Origin: a virus
Length of the DNA: 26,989 nt
Direction: 5' to 3' (one strand)
Virus genome (UHGV): UHGV-0205323
Positions 7,467 to 26,989 of the stretch are shown here, in pieces. The position numbers and the translations under genes are program-made. The notes beneath the pieces are model-generated. The model did no database searches, was not told where the DNA came from, and was given only the letters and a program-made list of their open reading frames with translations. How positions within the stretch are numbered: position 1 is the first letter of the stretch; every line of letters starts with the position of its first letter.

Positions 7467-8624
7467 ATGCTCACTGTTAAGCAGATTGAAGCAGCAAAGC
7501 CGAAAGAAAAACCATACCGCCTTCTCGATGGTAATGGCCTGTACCTTTATGTCCCTGTATCAGGGAAAAAGGTATGGCAGCTTCGCTACAAGATTGACGG
7601 TAAGGAGAAAATCCTGACCGTCGGAAAATATCCGCTTATGACTTTGCAGGAGGCAAGGGATAAGGCATGGACTGCGAGGAAAGACATCTCGGCTGGCATC
7701 GATCCGGTAAAGGCGAAAAAGGCTTCGTCTAACAACAATTCCTTTTGTGCGATTTACAAGGAATGGTACGAGCACAAGAAGCAAGTCTGGTCAGTAGGCT
7801 ATGCAACTGAACTTGCCAAAATGTTTGATGACGACATTTTACCCATCATCGGCGGTCTTGAGATTCAGGATATTGAGCCGATGCAACTGTTGGAAGTAAT
7901 CCGCAGATTTGAAGATCGCGGTGCAATGGAGCGAGCCAACAAAGCACGCAGAAGATGCGGCGAGGTTTTCCGTTACGCTATTGTCACCGGAAGGGCTAAA
8001 TATAACCCGGCACCTGACCTTGCTGACGCCATGAAGGGATACCGCAAGAAGAACTTCCCGTTTCTTCCTGCAGACCAGATCCCGGCATTCAACAAAGCAC
8101 TGGCAACATTTTCAGGAAGTATCGTATCGCTCATTGCGACCAAAGTTTTACGCTACACAGCCCTAAGAACGAAAGAGCTTCGTTCCATGCAATGGAAGAA
8201 CGTCGATTTTGAAAACAGGATTATCACTATCGACGCCAGTGTGATGAAGGGACGCAAAATTCATGTGGTTCCGATGTCGGGCCAGGTAGTTGAACTTCTC
8301 ACTACGCTAAGCTCCATCACTAAACCAGTATCAGAGTTTGTTTTTGCCGGGCGCAACGATAAGAAGAAGCCAATCTGCGAGAACGCGGTATTGCTTGTGA
8401 TCAAACAAATCGGCTATGAGGGTCTGGAAAGCGGTCACGGATTCAGGCATGAATTCAGCACAATTATGAACGAGCACGAATGGCCTGCTGATGCTATTGA
8501 AGTGCAACTGGCACATGCCAACGGCGGATCTGTACGCGGGATTTACAACCATGCTCAGTATCTGGATAAGCGCAGAGAAATGATGCAGTGGTGGGCGGAT
8601 TGGCTTGATGAAAAGGTGGAGTGA
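7467..8624 (+). CDS. int: tyrosine integrase, P4-type (DUF4102 N-terminal domain)
   Basis: N-terminus MLTVKQIEAAKPKEKPYRLLDGNGLYLYV...WQLRY typical of P4/CP4-57-like integrases; C-terminal catalytic region with HGFRH and conserved R/H/Y context; start placed at ATG 7467 rather than the track's 7431. Confidence 0.85.
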   Translation: MLTVKQIEAAKPKEKPYRLLDGNGLYLYVPVSGKKVWQLRYKIDGKEKILTVGKYPLMTLQEARDKAWTARKDISAGIDPVKAKKASSNNNSFCAIYKEWYEHKKQVWSVGYATELAKMFDDDILPIIGGLEIQDIEPMQLLEVIRRFEDRGAMERANKARRRCGEVFRYAIVTGRAKYNPAPDLADAMKGYRKKNFPFLPADQIPAFNKALATFSGSIVSLIATKVLRYTALRTKELRSMQWKNVDFENRIITIDASVMKGRKIHVVPMSGQVVELLTTLSSITKPVSEFVFAGRNDKKKPICENAVLLVIKQIGYEGLESGHGFRHEFSTIMNEHEWPADAIEVQLAHANGGSVRGIYNHAQYLDKRREMMQWWADWLDEKVE

Positions 8625-8643
8625 TCCACCTTGACTATCGAAT

Positions 8644-8700
8644 GGCACAAAGCCTTGCAATCCAGTGCAAAGCTTTGTGTGCCTCAGTTTTGTCTCATTA
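8644..8700 (+). terminator. putative terminator / structured element downstream of int
   Basis: Long imperfect hairpin GGCACAAAGCCTTGCA / TGCAAAGCTTTGTGTGCC followed by T-rich TCAGTTTTGTCTCATT; a separate perfect 8-bp hairpin AAGGTGGA-GTGA-TCCACCTT (8613-8632) spans the int stop codon. Confidence 0.45.
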
Positions 8701-8751
8701 TTAAAATAATTCCGTCAACCTCACTACCTTCATAATATTGAATTTTTTTAA

Positions 8752-10413
8752 TTACCTCCATGCAACAATTGTAACTGGTATAGTTACTGACTGACTTGTA
8801 ACTATAAGTCCTGTTGTTGTATCAACAATTCTTATTGCAAACCCGGTAGAATTATAAGTGTCGGCGTATACTTGATATTTAAAAGGAGATGGTACTGCAC
8901 CTGAATGAAAATCAGGATGTATAATTACTTTTGAGGCATAAAAACCAATTGTAACTATACCTCCCGGATTAACTGTTGTTGTCGATATATAATCCGGCGA
9001 GTTGTGTATCTTATCGTTAACCCTTATTATCTTACCATTTCCAATCATGCTAAATATAGTAAATACACCATTTGGGTCATTAAGATAAACTGTTGCATTA
9101 TCTTCTACTCTTATATGACCTGCTGTTCCGTCATCATTAAGCAAGACAGGGTTGTTAATGTAAGTTACTGAATTTCCTCGACATCTAAAATGATAAAAAT
9201 TAGGTCCGTTTGGATTAACTCTATTGAAGTGTGGATTGTTATATGTGACTACTGAAGATGATGCTACCAGTATTGATTGTGTTCCTGCTGTCATTTTTCC
9301 ATCTGTAGAATCCATCTCAAAATTTGGTGAGTCGAAAACAACCCCGGTAGAGTTTGTATCAATATGATGGAAGTAAGAGTTATAAGACCCATCATGCCCC
9401 ATATTAAAATTAATCCACTTAGACCCCTTTACACCACGAAGTCTTAGTGCAAATGCTTTGAAGTTTGCCGCATAACAGTTTATATATGTATTTTCAATTA
9501 TCTGGCCGTTACTCGAAATATCAAAACCAATTCTATTCCCATTTGCTCTGATGTTTGTAAACACATTGGAGAAGTCAGCAGGACCAGCTTTATAACCAAC
9601 ATCAAAGTAGTCTAAATACATATTAGAGAAAGTGCAGTTTACTGTCTTATTTACTCCGGTAAGATCAAGACCAGAACCAGATCCAATTGGTTGACCTCCG
9701 CTAACGGCACCCTCAACAATTAAACCTATATTTGCTATTACTGTTCCTCTTAATTCATTTCCAGATGCAGATATTCCTGAAATCCCGCTAGGTGTTTTTA
9801 TGCTTGATGTAGATAGAGAATCACCAATTAATCCAAAATTATTCTTAAGTGAAATGTTACCTTCCCATTCCCCTGGAGGAACCTTAAGGGTAATGGGAAT
9901 GCTACCAGATGCTATATAATCATTTACCGGGGAAAGATCATTACCGATAACACCAAATCCTCTTATATCTCCTAATCTTCTATAATCAGTAATAGAAATA
10001 AAATCCTGAACGGACTCCCCAGTATCGTAACAAACTAAAGATGCTCCAATATTAGACGCAAGCCTTTTTTCAAGCTGATCCGGGTCGTACTTCAGTACAT
10101 TCGGAAAATAAAACTGCTGCGCACCGTACGCATCATAAACAGCCATAGAATGGCCTTGCACGGTAACGAATTTGGCAATCTGTCCGTTATATACAGGGTA
10201 ACCAGCAGCGTTAATGATGATTGGCTGGGATACAGGAACGTGAGAGCCGTCTTCGTTCTCCACATAAACCTGAATCTGGTTTTCAGGATTTACCGGGTCA
10301 GTGTCAATTTTACCGATATAAATTTTGCCATTGGCTACGGCTTTAAAAGAACGAGCCATAGTGAAGAGTTGCGAAGGCATCGATACGATCACATTGGCTG
10401 TAATGTCTGTCAT
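8752..10413 (-). CDS. tailspike protein: P22 gp9-like N-terminal head-binding domain fused to a divergent receptor-binding domain
   Basis: N-terminal ~110 aa ([11 protein letters not shown]...[22 protein letters not shown]...[13 protein letters not shown]...VLKYDPDQ) closely matches the P22 tailspike head-binding domain as recalled; the remainder is Gly/Asn/Ser/Thr-rich and unlike P22; last gene before the int-proximal end. Confidence 0.85.
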
Positions 10414-10513: not shown

Positions 10514-11404
10514 TCAGTAGTTATGTACTGAAGGAGGTAATTCTTTATTCTTAAGTCTCATCCATGCGGAAAGATTCGCTGGTCCGTCTGGCTCATTAAT
10601 ATCAACATCTCGTGTGTGGTTTATTAAAACGTCTCTCGCCATTCCGATAACATACGAGAACTCATGACCGTAGTCGTAGCATCTTCCGGAATAGTTCGAT
10701 TGAATTTGTTTTAACGCCGGATACAGTTCGCGGAATAATGCCTGTGAACGGTTGGCATAATCCCATAACCATACAAGACTGTTTGCTTCTTTTGCAGAAA
10801 GCTCGTTGGTCTTCTTCTCTTGTTTGCCGATAAACTCGCCTTCAAGCACTACCCTGTGGATGTACTCTACGGCCAGCGGGATTTGTTCAATTGAAAGTTC
10901 ATCAATGCTGTCAATACCAAAACGCTGATGAACCATATTGTATGCATCGTCATAGCGAAGTCCTTTCTTTCCTACCAGCATGTTTACTGCATCGCGTAGC
11001 GGTGTGCGTTCAGCTACTGAAGTTTTACCGCCAATAGCCTTCCTCTCTTGTGTGGTAGTAACCATTGCGTCATATGCACGGATAACCTTCAGCGCAAAGG
11101 CTGCGCTAATCCACATGGCGTAGGAGTAAACAAGCTCCTTGCACACGTAGGTTCCACCATATCTACCTTTCTTAGAAAGGACGGGATTCTTATTCTGCAT
11201 ATCCGCAGAATTAAAAATTTCATTAATCAATTCAATAGTTTCATTTCTACGCATGAAGAAAGCTGGCTGATGTTTTTCCTCCTTTCCAGACGCTACATGA
11301 AGGTCATTAAGCGAGTAACGACCCTCTGAATCCATATGAATCTTGACGTCAGAAATGATGATGCTATTAGTGCAATTTACAGTTGACTTTGCTAAGCTTG
11401 ACAT
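10514..11404 (-). CDS. ant: antirepressor Ant with KilA-N-type N-terminal domain
   Basis: 296-aa ORF downstream of arc on the same strand; N-terminal KilA-N-like pattern ([36 protein letters not shown]); position matches the P22 immI arc-ant arrangement. Confidence 0.65.
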
Positions 11405-11470
11405 ATCAATAATACCTCGTAAGTTTTGTTGATACCGAAGCCCTGACTGTTACAGCAGTTGGGGCTTCAA
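11377..11470 (+). ncRNA. candidate sar-like antisense RNA opposite the arc-ant junction and ant RBS
   Basis: Plus-strand terminator hairpin GAAGCCC...GGGCTTC followed by AACTTTTT (11434-11470) antisense to arc/ant; candidate promoter -35 TTGACG 11343-11348 with -10 TATTAG 11365-11370 inside the ant 5' end; 5' end uncertain. Confidence 0.3.
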
Positions 11471-11640
11471 CTTTTTGCTAGATTACCTTTAGAACTATCC
11501 CGCCTTAAACTATCCACTAACCGCATTACCATCTCGGTATTTATTGAGCGACCATTTTCTTTCGCTGACTTCTCGATTGCTAACTTAACCTCTAATGGGA
11601 TGCGCAAAGGGTACTTTGGTGCGTCTGACTTGACTATCAT
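11467..11640 (-). CDS. arc: Arc-like ribbon-helix-helix repressor
   Basis: 57-aa protein from ATG 11640 with GGAGGT RBS; PKYPLRIPLEVKLAIEKSAKENGRSINTEMVMRLVDSL parallels P22 Arc (PQFNLRWPREVLDLVRKVAEENGRSVNSEIYQRVMESF, recalled). Confidence 0.7.
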   Translation of the reverse strand: MIVKSDAPKYPLRIPLEVKLAIEKSAKENGRSINTEMVMRLVDSLRRDSSKGNLAKS

Positions 11641-11658
11641 ATTACCTCCAATCAACTT

Positions 11659-11675
11659 GGTATAACCGTTATACC
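11659..11675. promoter_or_regulatory. perfect 17-bp palindrome, candidate Mnt-type operator overlapping the ant/arc promoter
   Basis: GGTATAAC-C-GTTATACC is an exact inverted repeat around a central base, located between divergent arc and mnt and about 20 bp upstream of the arc RBS. Confidence 0.5.
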
Positions 11676-11676
11676 A

Positions 11677-11704
11677 TTGTGATCGCAGTGATGCAATAGT
11701 AATA
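11677..11704 (+). promoter_or_regulatory. candidate Pmnt promoter
   Basis: -35 TTGTGA at 11677-11682; -10 TAATAT at 11699-11704 (16-bp spacer); upstream of mnt RBS GGAGGTGG. Confidence 0.3.
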
Positions 11705-11728
11705 TCACCAAAATGCTATGGAGGTGGT

Positions 11729-11965
11729 ATGTCACGCGAAGAGCCGCAAATAAATATCAGGATTTCCAAAGAGTTAAAGGCAAAGGTTAAAGCCAGGGCG
11801 CAACATAACAAGCGTTCCATGAATGCTGAAATAATACAGATTATCGAAGATGCTGTTTGTGGTAGATCGCTTAATAGCAATGAATTTGCTCAGAAAGAGG
11901 CTGACAAATTCAGGGATGCGCTACTTGAAACACTGAAAACCATGTATGGTAAGGATGAAAAATAA
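11729..11965 (+). CDS. mnt: Mnt-like ribbon-helix-helix repressor
   Basis: N-terminus MSREEPQINIRISKELKAKVKARAQHNKRSMNAEIIQIIEDAV parallels P22 Mnt (ARDDPHFNFRMPMEVREKLKFRAEANGRSMNSELLQIV, recalled); divergent from arc-ant. Confidence 0.75.
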   Translation: MSREEPQINIRISKELKAKVKARAQHNKRSMNAEIIQIIEDAVCGRSLNSNEFAQKEADKFRDALLETLKTMYGKDEK

Positions 11966-12501
11966 TGCTGCACACAATTCATTTCTTATGCCCCGTTAAC
12001 ACTGCCACTGTTGGGCAACTTCAGAACCACTGTCTCACCGCATTATCTCAAGGCGCAACTGAATTAAATATCCATATATCAAGTCAGGGAGGGGAAACTG
12101 CCGCTGGTTTTACTGCGTATAACTTTCTTAAGTCACTCCCTGTTACCGTTAGAACTCACAACATAAGCAATGTTGAATCCATAGCTAATATCGTTTTCCT
12201 GGCTGGCTCAGAACGTTTCGCAAACCCATTATCAAGATTCCTGTTACATCCTCTATTATGGGGCTTTGCCACCCCAGCCGCCGACCATGCCAGATTGAGA
12301 GAGTACGGGAAATGCCTCGATAACGATCTTGATCGCTTCGTTGAGACGTTCAATATCGACATCGGAACCCATATTAGGTGGGCATCCCTGATAGCAGACT
12401 CGACCATTTTGGATGCTAACAAGGCTCTTGAGCATGGCATAATTAATTCCATAAAAACTGCAAGGCTGGTATCCAATCAGGCAAACTGGTGGGTTGTTTG
12501 A
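11965..12501 (+). CDS. ClpP-fold serine peptidase-like protein, translationally coupled to mnt
   Basis: ATG overlaps the mnt stop (TAATG); sequence aligns by eye to the E. coli ClpP core (IHISSQGGETAAGFTAYNFL vs [20 protein letters not shown]; Ser in SNVESIANI at the GQAASMGA position; His in FLLHPL at the MIHQP position; C-terminal LEHGIINSI vs VEYGLVDSI). Confidence 0.6.
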   Translation: MLHTIHFLCPVNTATVGQLQNHCLTALSQGATELNIHISSQGGETAAGFTAYNFLKSLPVTVRTHNISNVESIANIVFLAGSERFANPLSRFLLHPLLWGFATPAADHARLREYGKCLDNDLDRFVETFNIDIGTHIRWASLIADSTILDANKALEHGIINSIKTARLVSNQANWWVV

Positions 12502-12808: not shown

Positions 12809-13240
12809 TTAATCTTGCTTTGTAGACGGTATAAGGGATGCGTTTGCCTCTTTTGGCTTCAAGGTATACATCCCACCATTAAATGGATCAACAGCAAGCC
12901 AACCAATTAACCCACCAAACACAAGGTTTCCACCAATATACCAACCATTAGCATTGGCTTTGATTGGCAGGGTAACTGGTTCGTACCCATCCTTCTCCAT
13001 AGTGATCTGGTAGCTCTTTTTGCCAAAATAACTACCATCTGACTTGGCAAGAGTTACTCCTTGCGGGGTCTTACCTTGCGCAACAATCACGCCTGATTCG
13101 TCTTTTACCTTAAAGCTCGCACCGGAAGGATTGCTGTTCACTTGCACAAGCTGTGTTTCGTCACCAACAATAGTTGCGCACCCAGATAACATGATAGCGC
13201 CAGCAACGACGCTAATAATCCTCTTCATATCAATTTCCAT
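12809..13240 (-). CDS. lipoprotein (signal peptide with lipobox LSGC); candidate superinfection-exclusion or surface-modifying moron
   Basis: N-terminus MKRIISVVAGAIMLSG-C has a type II signal peptide and lipobox; Gly-rich C-terminal segment WYIGGNLVFGGLIGWLAVDPFNGGMY; followed by its own terminator; alternative start ATG 13228. Confidence 0.6.
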   Translation of the reverse strand: MEIDMKRIISVVAGAIMLSGCATIVGDETQLVQVNSNPSGASFKVKDESGVIVAQGKTPQGVTLAKSDGSYFGKKSYQITMEKDGYEPVTLPIKANANGWYIGGNLVFGGLIGWLAVDPFNGGMYTLKPKEANASLIPSTKQD

Positions 13241-13323: not shown

Positions 13324-15459
13324 TTACTCCTGTGTCATTCCGCTTAGCGATGCCACAATCCCAGCCCTCGACAAACGCTGGAACTCTTCGTTTCCTAATG
13401 CATCGCGAATTGCTTTTACGGCGGCCTTATTTGCCATAAATCTGCGTTCCGCCGCCGCTAATGCGCCATCACTTGCCCCAACCTTAACTGCCTTTGTTGC
13501 CTCTTGAACAGCCTTTTCAATAGCGTAACGACCACTTCTGGTTGCGGATAATTTCGCTATCGATCCTTTTGCTATCGCATCAATTGCTCCACCTGCAGCG
13601 CCACCAACTATTGCTCCAATAACACCTCCTCCAGAGAACCCTGCGATAGCGCCAGCGGTTGGAAAAGCGCCAGACAATACGCTCTCTAAAACTGGATGAA
13701 GGCCATTCTCAAGAGTGCTAATGGCTGGCATAGAGCGCCCTGTCTGTTCAACATATCGAAGTGGCTTTGTTGCAGCTCTTGCAAGTTCTCCGTATGAACT
13801 TGTAATCCTGCCAAGTTCTGGAGAATATCGACTAATTGCCTTCACGTTTTGTGGGGTAAGAATAGTCGCGATATGCTTAATTCCAGCCTCTTCAGACTTA
13901 CCTCCGCGTACCCCTTGCGATACCGCATCTTGTAATATTGATGCAATTGCTGGCGCGCGTTCCGACTCAGGTAGGGCGCTTATTATTTTATGAAACTGAC
14001 CTGTTCCACTTTTTGCTGAGCCCTGTAACGCCTTAGAGCCATTAGTTACTAACTGATCAGTTGCAAGGTCTCTACCAAACGCTGCTTCAGCCTGTTCTTG
14101 TGCTGTAAATCTTGCTTTTGACAGATCATTAGCTTTTTGCCAGTCATCAAGAAAACCGCCATTTTGAGCCATTATGCGCATATCTTCCGTTGCTGCATCA
14201 CGAAGCTCAGCCATGCGCCTTGCCGTATTTGCCTCACCAGACCTTATATACTTCTGCTCTGCGTCAGCAAGTTTACTTCGCCATGCCTTCATGGCATCAA
14301 ACGTGATTCCTTTTTTACCAGTTTTAGCATAAGCAGATGCGAATTGTTTCATCTCAGGAGTTAGCGGCATGCCAGCCAAAATATCACCCTGAATTGTAGC
14401 GTTCAGGTTTGACATTCTGGCCTTTGCGTCAGGCATCGTGGAGCGGACGCTATCCCATGCAGCCTTTTCTGAATTTTTCATTTTATCAATACTTGCCAAA
14501 ACCCTTTGTTTTATGGCTGCACTTTTTTCTGATGCAGTTCCTGCTTCAGCCCCAAACTCATCCAATGCTGAGTTAAATTTCGACTCTATTTCACTGAATG
14601 CTTTGGTGTGTGCATCCTGTGTAATTCCGGGCTTTGACGCCAGAATCCCCTCCGCCTGAGCAAGACCACGACTACCTGATCTCATGCCAGGAGTTAATGC
14701 GTTGATATCTATTCCAGCAGTATCTGCTGCTTTTGCTATTTCGTCTGACACATTAGCTGACTGTCTGGCAATAATCTCTCTTCCTGTACCAGACTTTGCC
14801 ATTTTCGAAACATCAGCAGCGGAATTTATTGCCCCGCCACCAAGAACTTGAGGTGATTTAGAGGTTAAGATCCTTCCAGCCCCAGAAAGTATCCCCTGAG
14901 TACCAATATTGATACCACCGTTAATGGCAGCATTTTGTGCAAAATCGCCCTCCTGATTTGCAGCATCAGCAAGAGAACCGGCAATCATGTTTCCTGCGGA
15001 ACCGATATCTCCAGCGAGCTTTGCTGTCGCTCCAGCAGCTTTTGCCGCTGTGCCAATTGGCAGGAGATACCCACCAATTGTTTCACCGGCTTGCGCATAA
15101 GGGTCTGTCGGTCTGTCTACTGGACGATAAACATCATCCAAAACCTTGGGTCCACCAAGCCCCTGACTGATTGCATTAATCAGACTTGCGCCGCCCTGCA
15201 ATACGTCAAATGGTATGTTTACCAGACCACGACCAGCCTGTTCTGCAATTTGCCCTGCACTTTGACCACCAGTGAGCCAATCGCCAGCTTGTTGCATCAA
15301 TGATGGTTCTTCCCGTGTTGGTGCATTATTGGCCTGATTAACTGTTTGTTGCTGAACAGCCTGACCAGCAAAATACTCATCAATGGCGGTGCCAATATCT
15401 TCCGTGCTCGTACCATCAGGGAAGGTAAATGTCTTACCGTTTGCAGTTACTTTCATCAT
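13324..15459 (-). CDS. ejection (internal virion) protein, P22 gp16-like
   Basis: 711-aa Ala/Gly-rich protein in the position of P22 gene 16 after gp7 and gp20; start overlaps the gp20 stop; assignment by synteny and composition. Confidence 0.65.
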
Positions 15460-16832
15460 TCCACCGTAAATTGAATGCCTGATTTTGACGTGTAGCTACC
15501 TCCTGCTGATTGCTGAGTAGCTGGCTGTTGCCTTGATGATTTCTTCCCGCTATTACCAACATTAACGTTATATTGCTGGTTGTAATTGTCGGTATATTGC
15601 TGAATGTCGCGCATTGATTGTTGTAGTGCTTCAGGGCTTGAGAAATCAACCTGTGGCATACCTTGAAAATACATCTTTGCTTCTGCAACGGTGTTGATAC
15701 CAGATGCCCCCATGTCTCTGGCTGCTGCAATGCCCTGATTCTGCATCTTTCCTTGGATTCGCTGTGCAGCGTTGTATAGTTTCCTCTGATCACCACCAGA
15801 TGCACGGCTACGAATATCTGCACCAAGAGCAGGAGAACCTGAAGAGCCTGTAATGCCAGTCATGAAGCCAAGATCGTCAATTGATGCGCCAGAAATTGCA
15901 TCAAGATCTTTCTTCATTGCGTAATTCTGCGCGCTTGCTGCCGACGTGGCCGGAGCAGCAATAGAGCCAGCAGGAACGCGAACCATGTTCCCCTCATTGT
16001 CTATACCTTCGTAGAACGCGTTAGCACCAGCACCATGAAGCTTCCCGCCTACGGTTACAGTTCTGCCATCTGCTAACTGAACTGTACGCTCATTATTCCC
16101 AACCGCCCCTTTCATTGATGCTCTCTGCATCGATAAATCCTGACCGCGCATCGTGATATTCTGACCTCGTGCTGTTAGCGCCTCGCCAGCCTGATTGCTG
16201 CGGATTGTCTCTGCAAGTTTTCCGCGATCAATCTCACGCCCAACGATTCTGTCTTGCGCCTGAAAATATTGTTCTGGACCAAGTGCAGCCATTCCAAGGT
16301 GATCAACAAACTCTGTGAAACCTTGTGGATTTTGCTGATACATTTTCGCCACATCCAGAGGGTCTACTCCGGCACGAGTAAGCTCAGATGAGTTGTTCTG
16401 CAACCATGACATCATGGCTTCTGGAGATGAAGCTGCGAGTCTGGCACTTGCTGCCAGTGTACCGACAGTGGAACGCTGGTCTTCATCGACAAATTTCATG
16501 CCGTTTCTTACAGCGTCAAACTGCTCAGGATACTGTGATGCCAGTTTTCGCATTGCATCGCGGTCACCAGATATATATGCATCAGCATAAGCCTGCTGAA
16601 ACTCTTGCTGTCGCTTCTGCTGATCCATCTGCTTATACATATCCATGACAGATGAAATGCCCTGCAAAGCCTGCAAGCCAACGTTATTACGTCCTGAACG
16701 CTCCATCTCGTTATTCTGTCGAATGTATGCAAGCGTGGCGTCTGCATCACTTGCTCTTGGAGCGTTGGAGTTCATGCCGCCTAACCCGGCAAGAAGCGCG
16801 CCTGAATTACCAGCCTGTTGCCATGTAGCCAA
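15456..16832 (-). CDS. ejection (internal virion) protein, P22 gp20-like
   Basis: 458-aa protein between the gp7-like and gp16-like genes; synteny with the P22 7-20-16 ejection cluster. Confidence 0.65.
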
Positions 16833-16844
16833 GAGACACCTCCA

Positions 16845-17498
16845 TTAAAAAAGTGAACCAAGAAGACCGACGCCAGCACCAATTGCTGTACCCCAACCAG
16901 GCATGATTGCAGTACCTGCAGCTGCACCTGCTGCCGCTCCACCCAAGGCGCTCTGAAATCCTGATGGTTTATTCGCATTAGCCGCAGATGCTGCCGCCTG
17001 CTGTTGATACAATTGGCTGACGTTGTTAGCGTAGTTCTGTCCGGCGTTTGCCTGACCTGTAAGAGCACCAAGGCCGATATTTGCCAGATTGTTGTAGTTG
17101 TTCATCTGACCTGACAGCCAGTTTTGACCAAGTGTAGGTGCGATTGCTGCTAACTGGTTTCCTGTTGCTGTAGAGCCTAATCCACCCGTTGCCTCTGCTG
17201 CTGCCAGACTCTGATAGCGCGCCTGCCCTGCAAGGTCTTTATACTGCTGAGAGTTGTAATACTGGTTAAGCGCCTGACCTTGCCCCTGAAGAGAGGAAAG
17301 ATTCTGCAACTGTGATACGTACTGCTGAGCGAGTGGCGTGAACGGTGCAAGGTTTTGCATGTTCGTCTGCCACATTTCACGCTGCAGTTCGATGCCCTTT
17401 TCAGTTGCGCGGGCCTGCTCTTTTGCTCCGCTATCACTGCCACCTTTGCAGTAAACAGCTTTGCTGAGGTGCTTATTGGCAATCTGGAAAATTAACAT
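16845..17498 (-). CDS. ejection (internal virion) protein, P22 gp7-like
   Basis: 217-aa Gln/Ala/Gly-rich protein with hydrophobic C-terminus, following the gp14-like gene; synteny. Confidence 0.65.
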   Translation of the reverse strand: MLIFQIANKHLSKAVYCKGGSDSGAKEQARATEKGIELQREMWQTNMQNLAPFTPLAQQYVSQLQNLSSLQGQGQALNQYYNSQQYKDLAGQARYQSLAAAEATGGLGSTATGNQLAAIAPTLGQNWLSGQMNNYNNLANIGLGALTGQANAGQNYANNVSQLYQQQAAASAANANKPSGFQSALGGAAAGAAAGTAIMPGWGTAIGAGVGLLGSLF

Positions 17499-17955
17499 TC
17501 GTTAGCTCCTCGTATTTTGAGCGCGGTAACTGATAAATTGTGATGCCTACAGGCTTTCCATTGCTGGTATAAGCATCATCAAGGTGACCAACACGGGTAG
17601 CGCCAAGCAAACGGATAATTGCCCGTCCGTATTTCGTGGTGTCAGGAACCATAGTGATGCTGTTAAGGAATGGTGAGTTTTCGAGAAGCCATTTGCAGAA
17701 TAATCGATGCCCTTGCAGTGCATATTCGCCACGGAATCCGGGGTCGTACACCGCATGGCATTCAACAACGCTATGCCAGAAGTTACGCACTTCATGCACT
17801 CCGACCAGCATCAGTCCTTCGTAGATGCCGAGGTATACCGCATCAGGCTTGATGTAGTATTTGTCTCCACTGTCTACGATATTTCCCGTGTTTGCCGGGT
17901 TGTTGAGGAATTCTGCAAGCTTCACCGGATTATCGATGAGCTTTATTTCCATCAC
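17473..17955 (-). CDS. P22 gp14-like virion assembly protein
   Basis: 160-aa ORF between tail needle and ejection genes, as in P22 gene order 26-14-7-20-16; start overlaps the gp26 stop. Confidence 0.55.
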
Positions 17956-18800
17956 TGCTCCGCAATGATTTTGATGGTTGTGGCAGTAAACGCCGCACCA
18001 TTCGACTGAATGGTTAACGTGCTGCCATTTGTGGCAAGAAAGCCGTCTTTATCCACGCTGAAGAACGTAGCTAACAGGATGTTATCGGTCGTTGTCGCCG
18101 AGTTGCGGCTGCTTACCAGTGTGTCAGGAACAGAGCCGGAAAAGGTTAGCTGCATTGACCTGTTGGCTGTTCCGCTGGGCCACGTCCCGACGATCGACAG
18201 CTTGAAGAACAAGGTTTTGTTCTCGTTGAACACAACCATCTTGTTGTTAACGGTGTCGAAGAATGGTGCCAACGTGCCGGATGACGGCGTGAGCGTTTTC
18301 AGCAGGCTAACAAGGTTGGTCGGCGCTATCGGGATGGTTACAGATACGCCAGAGTAAACAACCTCTGACTTTTTGCGAGTAGTGGCATACTCCAGAGCAT
18401 CAATGCGCGTTTCATGGTCTGAAACCTGCGACTCCAGCGACTGAACTCTGGTATCAAGCGACGCAATATCGCTTTCATTCTGAGCGATTCGCGTTTCATG
18501 GTCCTGAAGAGTTGATTCTGCCTGGCTGATTCGCTCCTCATGATTAACAAGCGTTGCTTCCGCAGCAGAAATTCGCTGCTCATGGTCAGCGAGAATCACA
18601 TCCTGCTCATCGTTCCTGACTTGTGCGTCATAAGCGCCCTGTCCGGCCTCGTTGGCCTTGTTCGCCACATTACCAACATCAGTGCCCTGTGCGATAACGT
18701 AAAGCAGATACGACTGCGAGAAGATATTGCGTGGAAGGACTGATGTGTCGAGCCGTGTAGCCTGAATGATTACCGGCACATTGAGATTCGAATCAGCCAT
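17952..18800 (-). CDS. tail needle protein (P22 gp26-like N-terminus, extended C-terminal knob-like domain)
   Basis: N-terminus [43 protein letters not shown]...[21 protein letters not shown] matches the P22 gp26 N-terminal domain as recalled; heptad coiled-coil core; C-terminal ~110 aa unlike P22. Confidence 0.85.
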
Positions 18801-20218
18801 TACTCAATCCTTATCTGGCAGCCAGACAGAGTGACAGGTGACTTCGTGATAACGCGCAATTTGAAGCCAATGTTTTTCCTGATGCGCCCTACTCTCTTCC
18901 ACAAAACGCGTTTGTCGTAAACGAACGGTTCATTCTGCTCAATCATCTGCTCACGTCCGTAATTGATTCCGTCAGTGGTTGCAGAGAGAAAAAGGCGGTC
19001 GGCGTACTGCGCAACGCCAGTTGACGATTCAACCTCAAAGTCAAACACCCTGGCGTTATCCGCTTTGAACAACGGAGTAAACAGCAGGTGTTCCTGTTGC
19101 TTGTCGTACTGGCTGCTGATGTCAAACTGCAATTTCCCTGTCATCGATTCAAGCTTATCGCCGCACGTTATCTGATTGCCTTCGTAAATGAAGTCGATAG
19201 CGCGGTACACATCGTCATACAGGCCTGTTTTCAGCACACACCATTGCGGACCATTGGCGCTTGAAGATGCGTCGTACACCAGAACATGGCGCGGAAGGTG
19301 GATAATCAGCAACTCATGAGCATCAAATCGCAGCGATTCCATCACGCCATCAGCCAGTTCATCAGCAGTGTAGGAGCGGAGAATTTTCTCAATGCTCGCG
19401 CTGGCGATTGGTGATACCTGACCGGAGCCGATGATGTATACAGACGGCGCACCCGTTGCCGGATTGCTGATGAACGCATACGAATCAGCAAACGTCGTTT
19501 TGCAGTAAGTCCCGGCAATACCTTTCTGCACCATCAGCGATGGCTGTGCGACATACAAAGCGGCACCAACGGTGGTTGCACCAGTCAGGGAGAAATATTC
19601 AATCGTCGATGAACCAAAGCAGACGATGAAGTCTCGCCATGTGCCGATGCCGATGATGCCGTCCGGCTGCGATTCTGCGCGATATTGTGCGCTGTAACGG
19701 TCAGGATGCGATTCGTCTTCAAGGTCAGTGATAAACCATGAATCAGTGCCGTCTTTTGACCACGCATAACGCCCACGTAAGCGCGTAATGTCGCGAACTG
19801 AACCTAACTCGTACTGTGTGAATCCGCTGTCTGTAGGCCAGTTTGAGACTGTTTTAACTGTGCCATCATAGCGGTATTCGACCAGTTGCCCGTTAACACC
19901 TACCGCCTGTGATGTCCGACCATGTGCCATTGATACGCGACCACTTCCGGCAACGTCACCGACTTCACTTTCGCCTTTGTAGAGCTTGCCACCACACACA
20001 CGATAAACAGCATTCTGCGCCATGTTGTACTCGACGCCTCGAGATACACCGTTCACATCAGAACGTTTGGCAATGCCCGGGAATGAGCGAAGATATCCGC
20101 TGCTGTTGAGGATTTCTTTGGGTGTAGCCAACATATTCACTGGCAGATAGTCGATATAGTCGGCGTTTCGGAAGTCTTTGCCGACACCTTTCATAAGCGG
20201 AAGTTGCTGAATCGGCAT
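18800..20218 (-). CDS. tail hub / tail accessory protein, P22 gp10-like
   Basis: 472-aa ORF between gp4-like and tail needle genes; length and position match P22 gene 10 as recalled. Confidence 0.8.
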
Positions 20219-20718
20219 TATTCGCTCCCGTTATCGCAAGGTTCCTTTCGGTGGAAGTAATTCCAACCGTTCCACTTCGCCAACTGGTTACCGCTACCAA
20301 CAGGCATACGGTTTGGATAACCGGACTTACATTTAGCGGCTTTTGCTCTGTCCATTGCAGACAGTTTGACGAGTCGCTCTTTCCCGTATCTGGCAGTGGT
20401 TATAAGTTTTGCTGACGCTTCCAGCGCATAATCCGGAGCAATGCGGCAGGCAAGGTTGAAAATGACGGCATTGATAGCGTTATTTGATAAACCGTGCTCA
20501 TCGCCAGGATCCGGAGCGACATCTGCATCAGCAAAAATGTAGCCAACGTTGATCCCAGGTGACGCATCACCGCCAAACCATTCAGCCATCATCATTTCAA
20601 GGTCGTTGACGCCGTCTTCCATAGACTGCGGTTCGACATCGGTTAACGTGGCATTTGATGCCACACCGAGCTTACGTAATGCCGCAAGAACTAAATCACC
20701 CTTCGTTGTCAGGTTCAT
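20218..20718 (-). CDS. head-completion / tail adaptor protein, P22 gp4-like
   Basis: 166 aa from ATG 20718 (AAGGCGG RBS); sequence [21 protein letters not shown]...[14 protein letters not shown] resembles P22 gp4 as recalled; the track's longer ORF is an upstream in-frame extension. Confidence 0.75.
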
Positions 20719-20926
20719 CTGCTGCCGCCTTAGGTTTTCGACCAGGCTTTTTACGCTGTTTTTCTTCTGGCTCTGGCTCTGCAACATCCTTCAGAAGGTC
20801 ATCGGGATGTGCAAACCAGCCAGCATCCAGATATTCCTGAAGCTCTTCGGCTTTCACGATTTCAAAGTCGTATCCAACGCCTTTCCACTTCTTCATGTCG
20901 CCATGACGAAAGATCATGTGTGTCAT
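20696..20926 (-). CDS. small hypothetical protein (76 aa) between coat and gp4
   Basis: GGAG RBS 6 nt upstream of ATG 20926; overlaps the gp4 start by 23 nt; Lys/Glu/Pro-rich C-terminus. Confidence 0.4.
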
Positions 20927-20938
20927 GTTTGTCTCCAG

Positions 20939-20962
20939 ATAAAAAAGGGAGCCGAAGCTCCC
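20939..20962 (-). terminator. rho-independent terminator immediately downstream of the coat gene (minus strand)
   Basis: Minus-strand stem GGGAGC / GCTCCC with TTCG loop followed by TTTTTTAT. Confidence 0.55.
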
Positions 20963-20970
20963 TCTGGTTA

Positions 20971-22266
20971 TCACGCAGTCTGGTTAGGCAGACCAACGCC
21001 AATTGCCTCTGGTCGTACAGCACATGCTGAATACCACACAGCAATACGGCACTTACCAGACAGAGTGTTGATATCACCCTGCGTTGCGAAGATGCCGTTA
21101 ACACCAATACCTGGAATGCTGAAGGAAGACGTTTTCATGCCAGCAAACAGTTCATGGGTTACCGGGATCGGCTGAGAAAGCAGACGGATTGAGTCATCAG
21201 CCCAGAACACGTTAGCGGTGGTTGTTGCCACGTTCAGAACGTTTACCGGAGTGGCATCAGCAAGAGAGGTGTTTACGTTAGCGTAAGCCTTCTCTTCTTT
21301 TGTCAATGAAGCGTCATCAAGCGCAATCGGCTTCGGCGTGATTTCGATGTGAGTACCATCGATCACACGGGTGATTGAGAAAGTCGCGTCATCAGTCAGC
21401 ACGTTCTTCGCCATCTGAGACAGGAATTTCACACCAGTGAAGCTGATTTTGTCGCCGCGCTTAAATCCGGTGGTGGAGGATACGGTCACCGTTGCAACAC
21501 GGTTGTCGACGTTCTCTTTGTTACCATCGGTATCAAGGGTGTATGCCTGCGGCTTAAACTTCTGCGCACCAGAAACAGTTACACCAGTAGCGGTTGACTT
21601 GGTAACCGCCGGAAGTTTCGGTGAGCGAAGAATTTCATCAAAGCCAGCAATCTGACGCTGAATAGTACCGTTGCGATACGCTTCTTCAGGAACGCGCCCA
21701 AAGATGTCACCATCTACCAGGTTGCGGCCTGCTTTGCGGTAATCGTCAGGGTTCAGGAAGTAACTGATGCCCATATCGCGGTTTAGCTCACGGGAGAACA
21801 TCAGGCGCTCTGCATCAGACACAAAATCCCAGCCAGACAGGCCAGTAGATGGACCAATTGCGCGGGTATCGTGAACAACAAGCGAGCCCATTTCAGTTGC
21901 CTGTTTGGCAATCGCTGACTCAATGTTATTCGCCAGTTTTTTGGCGGATGCCTGGATGCGGCGACGGTAAGAACGCTCATCACGCAGGTCATCTGCACGA
22001 AGCTCGAAGAAATCGTTATCCGGATCGCCCATGTTGCATTTCACGGAGAGTTCCAGAATCCCGGTTGCGTTGCCAGTTAAATCCCAGCCAGTCTGGGTTG
22101 GCGCTTCCTGCTCAACAGGCATCCACACGGTGTTGCTTGAACGTTGCATGGATTCTGCCGGAGGGGTGTATTTTGTCACTTTGGACGCCATTGGCGTCAG
22201 GTTCTGGACGGTTTCGATGATTTCATCCAGAGCATACGTGACCAGTTGACCTTCATTTAATGCCAT
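20971..22266 (-). CDS. major coat protein, P22 gp5-like
   Basis: 431-aa protein; long stretches match the P22 coat protein as recalled (MALNEGQ...NLTPMA...[21 protein letters not shown], ...[13 protein letters not shown] at the C-terminus). Confidence 0.9.
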
Positions 22267-23177
22267 TATCGAATTCCTTTATTCAGTTGCGCCTTAAGCT
22301 TGCGGTACGTCTCTACATCCCCTTTGTTTGCTGCCGCTTCCATCTGCTTTTCAATCGCAGAGATATTTGCAGCAACAGCGTGTCCCTGAATGGGTTCATC
22401 AGGTAACGGGGCTTCTGAAACAGGCTTGGCTCGAGGCTTGAGAGTTAAACGTTCTGACAGTCGAGTGAGTTCAATCAGCGCGGATTGCCCGTCCATCGCC
22501 AGCAACTGGCGTGTCTTCTCAGGATTAGCACCAAGGTGATACATGAGAGCAGCGGATTTCTCCGGGAAGAGACGCATGATATCGGCACCGACTGCTGGCG
22601 GCACCAATTGCATGAATGCATCCTCTTTCTCCTGATAGTCAGGGATGTTGAGCTTTTCCGCTGCGTCGTAGTGCTTACGGGCTGCCTCGACGTATTGCGC
22701 TGATTGCTGGGTGAACTCCTGAGTTTTGCGCCCCTGCTCGGCGACAGCCTGGCTTCGTGCGTCCATAGCCTTGATCTGCCATTCACTGTTTGCCTGCTGG
22801 AAGGCAGCCAGTGCGCGGCTATGGTCATAGTCGTACTTAGCCAGTGCATCTTCGGAAAGATAATCGTTAGGGTCTGGTTGTTTTGGTAACTCAGGGTTCA
22901 CCCGCAGGTGCTCCGGCAACTCTCCACGCTTAACCGCTTCCATCTGCTGCTCAAGCTCACGCTGGCGTTTGCGTTCGATGCGGCGACGGGCAAATTCAGC
23001 ATTAGTTGCCGGGTCTTGTTTTGGTTTCTCATCGTCTTTCAGGACAATCTCGAAGCCTTCTTCCTGACCTGCGCTGTCGTTGGCATTATCGACAACTAAG
23101 CCATCAGCAGATGCCGCTGCATGATTGCCGGGCAGGGTTAATTCTTCAGAAGCCTGAATGTCGGTGGTTTGGGTCAT
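22266..23177 (-). CDS. scaffolding protein, P22 gp8-like
   Basis: 303-aa acidic coiled-coil-rich protein; near-identical segments to P22 scaffold as recalled ([40 protein letters not shown]); immediately upstream of coat. Confidence 0.9.
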
Positions 23178-23190
23178 GATTAACTCTCTC

Positions 23191-25356
23191 TTATTGAGGT
23201 GTCTCGGCTACTCCGCCGGAGGGGATTTGAACTTGACGCATAAGATTCGCGAAATCCATGCGTTGTGAATGAGTCTGGTCTGCATCTTTAAGAAGCAGCT
23301 CAGCGTTAGCACGAGCATCTTTGCTGCGCTGTTGCTGGAATTGACCTACGAGCTTGAGGTACTCACGCAGTTCTGCCTGCTTGTCGAGGTCCATATTGTT
23401 GAAGATTTCCGCAATCTTCGCGGCGTTGAGTTGGTTTTGGGCTTCAACCTTGGCGGCTTCAACCTGAATCTGCGCCTGTTGGTTCTCTGCCTTGAGCAAT
23501 TCAGCCTGACCTTGCAGAAGGATACCCTGCGCCTGAATTTGCTCTGCTGATGGCTGCTGCGGCTGCTGTTGAGCCTGCTGTACCATCTCCATCTCTTCAG
23601 GTGTTTCTGGCTTCTTCAGCCCCATCATCACCAGTTGCTTGTTCGCGTACTCTCGCATCATCTCGACGCCTTTACCGTCAAGCAACGTGAAGTATTGCAG
23701 CATCAGCATCTGGAACTCTGGAGTACCTTGCGGAACCTTGGTGAGCAACTCCTGAATCTCTGCGCGATTCTGTTCCTTCATGCTCTGGAAGGATGGCCCA
23801 ACGTCTGTATAGCACTCATAGCGACCGCGAATGTCGTTGAGTGTTACCACATTGCCGGACTGGTAATCGACAACTTGCGCATAGAGTTGAACGTCTTTCT
23901 CGCTTCCATCTTCAAGTGTCAGCGTTACATGACGAGGAACGTCATAAATATCGTTGACCATTGAGGCATAAATCTCGCCATCACGTCGCATTGCGGTAGC
24001 CAGGTTATCCTGAAACACGTATGTCTCAAGGTCTGCCCGCATGTTCAGTTGATTGACGGTATCGAAAGCGACCTGAGAGTTTGCTGCCTGCGCATCCACA
24101 CCAAGACTAGCCACCTCTTTCACTGCGTTGGTGGCAGCCTCAAGCATGTAAGCGTTGGCTTGCGGCACTTCAGGATTTTCCATGTAGGAGATTGGACCAA
24201 TCGGCAGGTCGTTACCGTTTTCATCGGTCTTGTTCTGCAGATAGTACGGATAGTCATCATTTCCACCGTACATGTATTCGTAGCCTTCGATTTGCTCAGG
24301 GAAGAAGGTCGGTTTCTTCTTCGGTGAACGAGCAACAATATCGGCGTTGAATGACATGATCATGTTACGAAGGCGCTGACCGTCTTTCGTCAGCCTTACC
24401 ACTCCTTCGTAGCACTCCTTGTCACCAGCGAATGACCATTCGCCATACACTGGAACGATTGGAATATGCTCTCCGGCTATCTTCTCGCGGTCTTTCAGTA
24501 TCTGCGTGCAGGTGATGATCGACTTATACACACGCCGACGCTTCACCTTGCGCTCTGCTACCTTAATGAATCCACGATTAGCCAGGTCGTCGATGACGTC
24601 TTTGATATCCTGCTGGTAATAGCTGACCGGCTCACCTGTCAGCGGGTCGCGGTAGATGAAGACTTTCTCTTTCTTCTCTTCTACCTCGTAATACTCAGCG
24701 ACGTAGACGACATCATTCGATACCCACGGAAACAGCCATGTGTCGTTCGGATTCTGGAAAGATGGCAGGGTGTCAGGATCAATACCGTAATCCTCTGCGA
24801 ACTCTTTCCAGCCATTGCGTGACAAAGCGTTAATCACCGTGCAGTGCTTAGCGTCGCTCTTATCCATCTGCTTGCTGTTGGCGTCCCATATGACGTGTGA
24901 GCAGGCTTCATGAATTGGCAGGCGTCGAATTACCTGATTGTTGCTTGTTGGATCGTTGTCTTCGTACTGCGTGACCAGACGCCATGCACCAACGCCTGAC
25001 TCTATCTGCTCACGAACGCCAACGTTAACGGCAATTTTTGCCGTATTATGGCGCATATCAGTACGATACATCCCCATCAGCACATCGGCAGCATCAGGAT
25101 TAGCGCCGTCTTTTGGTCTGAAGAGAACATCGATAGGGTTCCTGCGCATCTCTGCGACCAGCTTCCTGACCACCGGGCGAACAACATCGAATTGTCCGCG
25201 ATATTGCAGGGTGGTGTAGTTTGATAGCCAGTCATCCCATTGCGACACTCGGCTAAAATACAGGTCATTTGTCGCCTCGGTTCTGGCTTCATCGCTCGCC
25301 ATCCAGTCTGCGTCAAACTTACACAGAATGGAATTGAGTCTGTTTTCGTCGGCCAT
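23191..25356 (-). CDS. portal protein, P22 gp1-like
   Basis: 721-aa protein between terminase large subunit and scaffold; size and Gln-rich C-terminal barrel-like tail consistent with P22 portal. Confidence 0.9.
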
Positions 25357-26856
25357 TTAAGTTCTCCGTGCGATGGGCCTGATTGGGGCTGGTATCTTTT
25401 TCTCTTTTGGCTTTTTGATGTCGCGCATCATTTTTGCGAAGCGGCGCATCATGTATGCATAGCGAACGGCGGATAGCACGTCGTCGTTAAGCTTGACGAT
25501 TTTCCCGTTTTCATCACGGTGATAGAGGCGGAACTCCTCAAAGAATGGCTCACAGGTGTTGAATACTTTGAAGCGACCGTCGAGCATCATGTCTCGCAAT
25601 TCAGTGATGCCAGGCTCAACAGCGTTACCGCCATCAGGCCATGTCGCATGCTCCTGCAACATCATAAATCCAGCGTCCGCATACTGCCCTTTGAGCTGCT
25701 CACCGCCGCCCTTCTCGTGCTGGTTTCCGTCATGAGGCCATGCGGTTGGCACTTTATGCGCCCATGGTTTAACAGCTCCCCACGCCTGAACGGCTGTCTT
25801 TTCTTTCGCCTTCCAAACGCGTGAAAGGTAGATTATGTCTGCGTCCTTATCCCACCAAAGCTGAACCTGCGCCTGCGGGTGATCCCATCCGAAATCCATA
25901 CCGCCAATTACGTAGAAGTGATCAGGACACTCGAACGGCTGACACTTAATCGTCTCTTCCGGTATCTGGAAGATTCGACCACTACCCATCGTAGGAATAC
26001 CGCGAGCTCGAGCCTCTCTCTCATGCTCTGGATAGGATGCGATGATTTGCTCTTTCTGCTCATCGGTATAGTGCTCAGCGTCATAGATGGTCATGTTGAC
26101 CACTTTCTGCGACTTGCTGGGATTCTTCAGGAACTTGGTAACAACGTCAGACATCCCCATCAGCGGGGTAAACGTCAGAATTGAGAATTGCCCGTATTTG
26201 TTGGTACGGGTAAGACCTTCGCCATAAATGCTGTATGGTGGCTCTTCGTCAAACCACACGCCGTGGATTGTATCACCCTGCCAGCGAGCACGGCCTTGCG
26301 AGTATGGTTTGAAGTAGCAGATTGAAATGCCATCTTCAACGCCATCTGCCGTGTGATGCTTAACCAGAAGGTGATCAACAAGGTTCGGAAAGAAAGGAGA
26401 CTTCTTCCAGCTAATGATGTCCTCTTTCGGTATTGAACCGTAGCCCGGCTCATCATTCTCTTCAATACGACCGCACAGGATGCGTTGAGTCGTTTTGGTT
26501 ACCGTCTCGTTTGTCTCGCCGCCAATCCAGAAGACAACAGGCTCATAGAAACGCTTACCTTTCCACTCCCCACCATATTTACCATCAGCCGGATAGCCTT
26601 TTGTTCCCGGATAACGCCCGGTAAGGTGAAACGCGACTTCAGCAGCCCCAGTAAATGACTTACCAAGCTGGTTACCAGCCATAAAACAGCGCTCTGGATA
26701 GTCATGCCCGGCGTCGATGAACTCACGCTGTTTGCTGTATGGCGTAAATTCATATAGCAGGTGTGTGTTCCGGTAGTTCTCTTCTTCTTCGAGTAGCTCG
26801 AGCAATTCGATTTGCTCTTCGTCGCTCAGGTTATCAAGAATCGCGTCCAGTTCCAC
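25357..26856 (-). CDS. terminase large subunit, P22 gp2-like
   Basis: 499-aa protein with Walker A-like GNQLGKS near the N-terminus; position upstream of portal; GTG start with AAGGAG RBS. Confidence 0.9.
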
Positions 26857-26989
26857 GGTTGAAAAGCTCCTTGATACGAGAGCGCCGCTTATCGCGATCT
26901 CCCTTATCAGGTGTCACGTCTTCAACTTGCGACTGCTCTTTGAGGCCCAAATCACGGGCGATGATGTTAGCGTTGAGAAGGTCAGCGGC
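26834..26989 (-). CDS. terminase small subunit, C-terminal end (partial; 5' end outside window)
   Basis: Open frame running in from the window edge (...[14 protein letters not shown] stop) that overlaps the terminase large-subunit start; assignment by synteny only. Confidence 0.45.

Follow-up and report, generated by a model that had tools for sequence, protein, structure and literature searches.

An Sf6-type tail needle gene in the virion operon of a P22-like Escherichia/Shigella podophage

The window analyzed here, that is, the whole 26,989-nucleotide stretch of UHGV virus genome UHGV-0205323, carries a tail needle gene orthologous to Sf6 gene 9 and P22 gene 26 at positions 17952..18800 of the minus strand (282 codons followed by a TGA stop). 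This gene is located between homologs of P22 genes 10 and 14 on the same strand, and the order is the same in P22 and Sf6. The upstream neighbor (18800..20218, minus strand) encodes the 472-aa tail hub protein, a homolog of P22 gp10 and Sf6 gp8, which matched PF11134 (Phage_stabilise) with E=3e-300 and was 94% identical to Sf6 gene 8 at the DNA level. It is preceded by a gp4-like gene (PF11650, minus strand), which is called at 20218..20718 in the source-contig annotation. Downstream of the needle gene are a P22 gp14-like gene of the DUF2824 family (17473..17952, minus strand; PF11039, E=2e-65) and, also on the minus strand, gp7-like (16845..17498; PF25688), gp20-like (15456..16832; PF16928), and gp16-like (13324..15459; PF26808) genes. 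All genes in this order, from the gp4-like to the gp16-like one and including hub and needle, were intact. Further along the same strand, an antirepressor with KilA-N and P22_AR_C domains (10514..11404) and a tailspike with a P22-type head-binding domain (8752..10413) are encoded.

The needle gene is joined to both neighbors by one-base overlaps. The TAA stop of the hub gene overlaps the ATG of the needle gene (TAATG), with an AAGGA motif 8 nt upstream, and the TGA stop of the needle gene overlaps the ATG of the gp14-like gene (TGATG); Sf6 genes 8, 9, and 10 are arranged in the same way. The start of the gp14-like gene was placed at GTG 17955 (160 aa) in the mechanical list of open reading frames (ORFs), as opposed to ATG 17952 (159 aa). 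The latter is the probable start, since it agrees with the source-contig gene call and with the Sf6 arrangement. The two sources also differ for the gp4-like gene, listed as a 189-aa ORF (20218..20787) but called as a 166-aa product starting at 20718 on the source contig.

Both the ORF listing and reading of the sequence gave an intact needle ORF of 282 aa that begins with ATG and ends with TGA. An earlier note on this DNA had described the protein as about 50 residues longer than P22 gp26; with 233 aa in the latter, the excess is 49 aa. The same note had described the last ~110 residues as Thr/Ser/Asn-rich and unlike P22. The composition was as described (Ser, Thr, and Asn together account for 35.5% of the last 110 residues, 34.5% of residues 141-282, and ~21% of the N-terminal 140 residues), but the extent was underestimated, because the non-P22 part covers ~143 residues (140-282). 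Two plus-strand ORFs within or overlapping the needle gene (18010..18357, 115 aa; 17707..18009, 100 aa) were rejected as shadow ORFs, the needle gene itself being strongly supported. Matches of the needle in PADLOC and NCBIfam (JetC, LmuB, SMC, RNase Y) were all sub-threshold, and further Pfam matches (tropomyosin, XhlA, and others) fell under the cutoffs; these were attributed to compositional noise of the coiled coil. The shaft has a 14-residue 'DHExRI...' periodicity, which was considered as a possible driver of shaft-length variation of the kind seen in HS1, and the needle gene was therefore scanned for repeats. Tandem Repeats Finder with a min_score of 30 revealed no DNA-level repeat in it.

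The closest characterized relative of the product is Sf6 gp9 (NP_958185). The two proteins were identical at 278 of 282 positions in a gapless full-length alignment, and the gene showed 96.1% DNA identity to Sf6 positions 8254-9100. The earlier note had found the C-terminus reminiscent of the knob-bearing needles of Sf6-like phages, which is borne out by this identity together with the matches to knob structures 3RWN and 4K6B and to PF16532. The latter profile (Phage_tail_NK, 'Sf6-type phage tail needle knob') was matched over its entire length (1-175 of 175) with E=5e-117 and 388 bits, the gathering cutoff being 27, and PHROG 1030 ('tail needle knob') was matched with E=8e-135. The four substitutions relative to Sf6 gp9 are S92 (R in Sf6), A113 (S), I158 (T), and A270 (S). 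Alanine at position 270 is the residue of HS1. I158, located at the base of the knob, was absent from the compared Sf6, HS1, Louie, and DLL7555 copies and probably has no effect.

The protein is also well represented in public data. An exact copy is deposited in NCBI as DAE98135.1 ('MAG TPA: tail needle knob [Caudoviricetes sp.]'), encoded among the same neighbor genes on a metagenome scaffold of 36.7 kb. Clustering at 90% identity places the needle in a group of 3620 members, mostly annotated as E. coli 'tail needle knob protein'. Of 5426 complete E. coli genomes, 920 contained matches to the needle DNA, and at least 80% of the gene was covered in 474 (~9% of the 5426). The same cluster includes 'DUF2824 family protein' entries of 153 and 159 aa, which correspond to the product of the neighbor gene and are unrelated to the needle; their presence looks like a clustering artifact, perhaps arising from fused gene calls. 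The needle is therefore nearly identical to a protein that has been crystallized and studied genetically, is correctly named in public databases, and is common in E. coli prophages; in this sense, it is already known.

DNA identity to Sf6 gene 9 was uniform along the gene, being 95.1% in the plug, 96.2% in the shaft, and 96.5% in the knob segment, with no internal breakpoint. This uniformity bears on whether the gene could be a new hybrid whose C-terminus resembles that of Sf6 only superficially, either because it carries a novel tip domain or because it is a new intragenic recombinant. The sole point in favor of such an origin was the earlier impression of a length exceeding that of P22 gp26. 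Collinearity with Sf6 gene 9 over the whole length, each of the three segments being 95-96.5% identical in DNA, argues against it, as does the fact that the knob differs from that of Sf6 at only 2 of 143 residues, which is inside the spread of up to 4.9% among known knobs (PMC3741392). The probability of a new hybrid is practically nil.

The N-terminal, virion-proximal domain (codons 1-60; 18621..18800, minus strand) was 100% identical to that of Sf6 in a comparison of residues 1-68 and, as known from the literature on its homologs, would plug the channel of the tail hub. BLASTP alignment with P22 gp26 covered residues 1-137 only (81/137, 59% identity, E=8e-54). Likewise, residues 1-137 matched P22 gp26 structures (2POH, 3C9I, and 8EAP chains) at E~1e-43, and the P22 gp26 chain 8EAP_B matched residues 3-64 with E=2e-27. 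By segment, identity to P22 gp26 was 82% (56/68) in residues 1-68, 35% in residues 69-139, and 18% with 50 gaps in residues 140-282. Thus, the resemblance to P22 gp26 previously proposed for both the N-terminal tip and the coiled coil holds for the tip, whereas the shaft is well diverged. Full-length collinearity with P22 gp26, which would have contradicted the earlier note, is absent, since the BLASTP alignment stops at residue 137.

The shaft region (codons 61-139; 18384..18620, minus strand) is predicted to form a trimeric coiled coil of ~11 heptads; its identity was 97% with the Sf6 shaft and 35% with that of P22. One heptad register in residues 70-139 placed L, I, or V at 10 of 10 'a' positions from L70 to I133, while the other registers gave 0-3. 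Relative to the 11-heptad Sf6 shaft, the region was gapless. The needles of Sf6 and P22 have trimeric shafts of 11 heptads each (PMC3741392), with which the unbroken 10/10 register agrees.

Codons 140-282 (17955..18383, minus strand) encode the Sf6-type knob, which by homology would be a TNF-like jellyroll trimer binding L-glutamate. Residues 130-282 were identical to the crystallized Sf6 knob (PDB 3RWN, chain 3RWN_A) at 151 of 153 positions (E=7e-90), and the HS1 knob (PDB 4K6B, chain 4K6B_A) was nearly identical to the needle C-terminus (E=2e-89). Because of this identity to 3RWN_A and near-identity to 4K6B_A, the C-terminal ~143 residues are assigned to the trimeric TNF-like beta-jellyroll fold, as predicted from sequence. 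In the published structures, the Sf6-type knob forms a jellyroll trimer of the TNF-like fold to which three L-glutamates are bound (PMC3741392). All seven residues of interest were present (Sf6 numbering), namely E146, K200, S248, and D250, which contact L-glutamate, and the S231-R232-N233 triad at the distal tip; the list of contact residues was taken from PMC3741392, where HS1 numbering minus 35 corresponds to Sf6 numbering. The helical tip of the P22 type, an inverted coiled coil formed by gp26 residues 141-233, was not found in the needle by BLASTP or by global alignment, which places the gene in the Sf6 subtype rather than in the P22 subtype. The residual similarity of residues 140-282 to P22 gp26 (18%, 50 gaps) does not reflect real homology. 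Among 164 P22-like genomes, 69 had knob-type needles and 95 had P22-type needles (Leavitt et al. 2013, PMC3741392). Known knobs differ by at most 4.9% and, among P22-like phages, are confined to those of Escherichia and Shigella; their entry into the P22-like group was probably recent (PMC3741392).

Every feature of the Sf6-type needle family that can be tested in sequence was found in the window gene, as were those of the wider gp26 needle family apart from the P22-type tip. Nothing in the sequence speaks against the identification. We estimate at about 97% the probability that it encodes the Sf6-type knob needle of a P22-like (Lederbergvirus-type) Escherichia/Shigella podophage, with the plug, shaft, knob, and ejection mechanism included. 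The gene product can thus be annotated confidently as the tail needle (knob) protein of the Sf6 type, and the phage as a P22-like podophage infecting Escherichia/Shigella.

The mechanism may be outlined from the sequence identity, domain boundaries, ligand residues, heptads, and synteny established here, while trimerization, plugging, ejection, and the kinetic role are transferred from what has been published about Sf6, HS1, and P22. Three needle chains would assemble into one long needle. After DNA packaging, the N-terminal ~60 residues would enter the hexameric gp10-type hub and plug the DNA exit channel. Residues ~61-139 would form a trimeric coiled-coil shaft reaching past the tailspikes, and residues 140-282 would form the distal trimeric TNF-like beta-jellyroll knob with one L-glutamate at each subunit interface. 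During infection, the needle would be expelled, opening the channel, and its tip could tune how quickly DNA delivery begins. In the studied phages, the trimer enters the channel of the hexameric hub with its N-terminal end and retains the packaged DNA, and needles are missing from particles that have already injected their DNA (PMC3741392). For P22 gp26, both DNA retention and expulsion at infection have been established by genetic and biochemical work (PMC3741392). Cryo-EM of the Sf6 tail showed that a helical hairpin resolves the 3:6 symmetry mismatch (PMC9728967).

The earlier note had assigned to the needle tip an influence on both DNA delivery and host range. Published data support the former in terms of kinetics, since changes in the tip slow K+ release (PMC3741392). 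An effect on host range would be expected if the knob were a receptor-binding module, recognizing, for example, OmpA or OmpC, so that a needle swap would retarget the phage. Several observations are in line with this possibility: the TNF-like fold is also that of the receptor-binding fiber knobs of adenovirus and PRD1, the knob is confined to Escherichia/Shigella phages among P22-like ones, and the authors of that study allowed for a specific function of the knob in Sf6 infection of Shigella (PMC3741392); besides, OmpA and OmpC are secondary receptors of Sf6 (PMC9728967). However, when P22 was given Sf6 codons 69-282 or the knob of HS1, the chimeras infected Salmonella efficiently, with normal yields and normal plaques, and neither glutamate-site mutants nor knob swaps in P22 had a clear phenotype (PMC3741392). 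Leavitt et al. concluded that the tip affects the kinetics of DNA delivery and that a role in host specificity is unlikely (PMC3741392). We likewise consider a receptor-binding, host-range function of the knob unlikely and retain only the delivery part of the proposal.

It is also very improbable that the I158 allele, or the combination of an Sf6-type hub and needle with a P22-type head and non-Sf6 ejection proteins, makes the needle behave unlike the characterized ones. One example of such behavior would be a host-specific role of the knob in E. coli that P22/Salmonella chimeras could not reveal. As to the purpose of the knob and of the glutamate bound to it, the window sequence adds nothing new.

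Sf6-like DNA (~94-96% identity) was limited in the window to 20223..17950, that is, to the hub and needle genes, according to both a 100-nt identity profile and BLAST. The same two approaches found no DNA match between the gp14-like gene and Sf6. The head genes (gp4-like, coat, scaffold, portal, and terminase) are of the P22 type and not of the Sf6 type in DNA. Identity to P22 DNA was 77% over 18580..26989, and within the needle gene, similarity to P22 ended at about codon 73. The closest whole phage, CurroJimenez_Bas106, showed 96.6% identity over the head and hub genes but has a P22-type needle of 233 aa. At the start codon of the needle gene (18800), identity to this phage dropped to ~70% from ~95%, and it disappeared after about codon 67. 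An intragenic joint near codon 68, as could be supposed from the BLAST alignment with CurroJimenez_Bas106 ending at 18598, was rejected in view of the drop at 18800 in the 100-nt profile. The position of this drop indicates that the unit exchanged relative to CurroJimenez_Bas106 is the whole needle gene and not just its 3' part.

The same combination of modules was present in phage Louie and in the prophage of E. coli DLL7555, with high identity to the window through the needle and downstream genes. The needle, gp14-like, and gp7-like genes of the window vary together in their agreement with these two. The earlier suggestion of a mosaic joint at the needle is therefore correct as regards the Sf6-type hub and needle adjoining a P22-type head, but the joint is not specific to the window, and the transition from a P22-like N-terminus to a knob is the standard architecture of Sf6-type needles. 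The mosaic joints are located at gene boundaries, the same arrangement occurs in isolated phages, and this pattern has been published for P22-like phages. The window provides a further example of the already documented exchange of modules at gene boundaries in P22-like virion operons.

The state of this operon was also considered with respect to a possible origin of the gene from a decayed prophage remnant that had lost its function. More than 100 E. coli genomes contain a P22-like remnant of several genes that includes an Sf6-type needle gene (PMC3741392), and many of the E. coli genome matches reported above could be such remnants. In the window, on the contrary, the intact gene is part of a complete and uninterrupted virion module extending from the terminase to the tailspike, on a metagenome scaffold of phage size (36.7 kb), and it shares 96% identity with the corresponding module of phages that have been isolated and form plaques, Louie and CurroJimenez_Bas106 among them. 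An origin from a remnant is extremely improbable.

Beyond the needle, the adsorption apparatus has another mosaic joint in the tailspike, which is only 553 aa long. Its residues 1-113 constitute a P22-type head-binding domain (PF09008, E=7e-67), the remaining ~440 residues matched no Pfam family, and in DNA, only the 5' ~350 nt resembled the tailspike genes of Sf6 and P22. Two small ORFs lie between the gp16-like gene and the antirepressor and tailspike genes, in an accessory slot that is occupied by sieA/mnt/arc in P22. The first, a 143-aa ORF on the minus strand (12809..13240), is located just downstream of the gp16-like gene; it matched no Pfam or PADLOC family and had only a sub-threshold NCBIfam match. 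It may be a moron or a superinfection-exclusion gene, being at the position of P22 sieA. The second, a 178-aa ORF (11965..12501), is on the opposite, plus strand and has weak similarity to the ClpP family (Pfam PF00574, E=4e-12, 46.7 bits; NCBIfam 'head maturation protease, ClpP-related', E=4e-13, well under the cutoff), with no match in the PADLOC scan. P22-like phages are not known to have a prohead protease.

Among known systems, the fiber knobs of adenovirus and PRD1 have only the fold in common with the Sf6-type knob (PMC3741392). Homologs of the TNF-like C-terminal knob outside the P22-like group are found in the T4-like phages 31, 44RR2.8t, and RB43 and in Mu-like Vibrio prophages; they are 37-63% identical and conserve the L-glutamate contacts but are not joined to a plug and shaft of the gp26 type (PMC3741392). 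With P22 gp26, the window needle shares the gene position, the role of plug and needle, a homologous N-terminal domain, and the number of heptads. The shafts, on the other hand, are only 35% identical, and the 93-residue helical tip of P22 (141-233) is replaced by a 143-residue jellyroll knob. HS1, a prophage of E. coli HS, has nearly the same knob, with Ala likewise found where position 270 aligns, and the same type of N-terminal domain, but its 317-aa needle has a shaft of 16 heptads compared with 11 in the window (PMC3741392). In phages vB_EcoP-720R6, Gally, and JEP4, the needle genes matched that of the window in two pieces and are ~954 bp long versus 849 bp, which is consistent with an HS1-type 16-heptad shaft carrying the same knob.

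Knob needles with 96.5-98% DNA identity and three amino acid differences are encoded by Louie, N7, Kapi1, and prophages of the DLL7555 type, which also share with the window the P22-type head genes and the downstream ejection genes. The DLL7555 prophage, otherwise 96.5% identical, differs from the window in that a gene with a NUMOD4 domain is located between the hub and needle genes. This homing-endonuclease-like gene occupies positions 11463..12008 of the prophage sequence, corresponding to ~18802-18899 of the window. In Sf6, the head genes and the gene at the position of the gp14-like one are of another type in DNA. The needle itself, however, corresponds to Sf6 gp9 in its length of 282 aa, in the succession of plug, 11-heptad coiled coil, and knob, and in the residues contacting L-glutamate and phosphate, as well as in the neighboring hub gene and the one-base overlaps.
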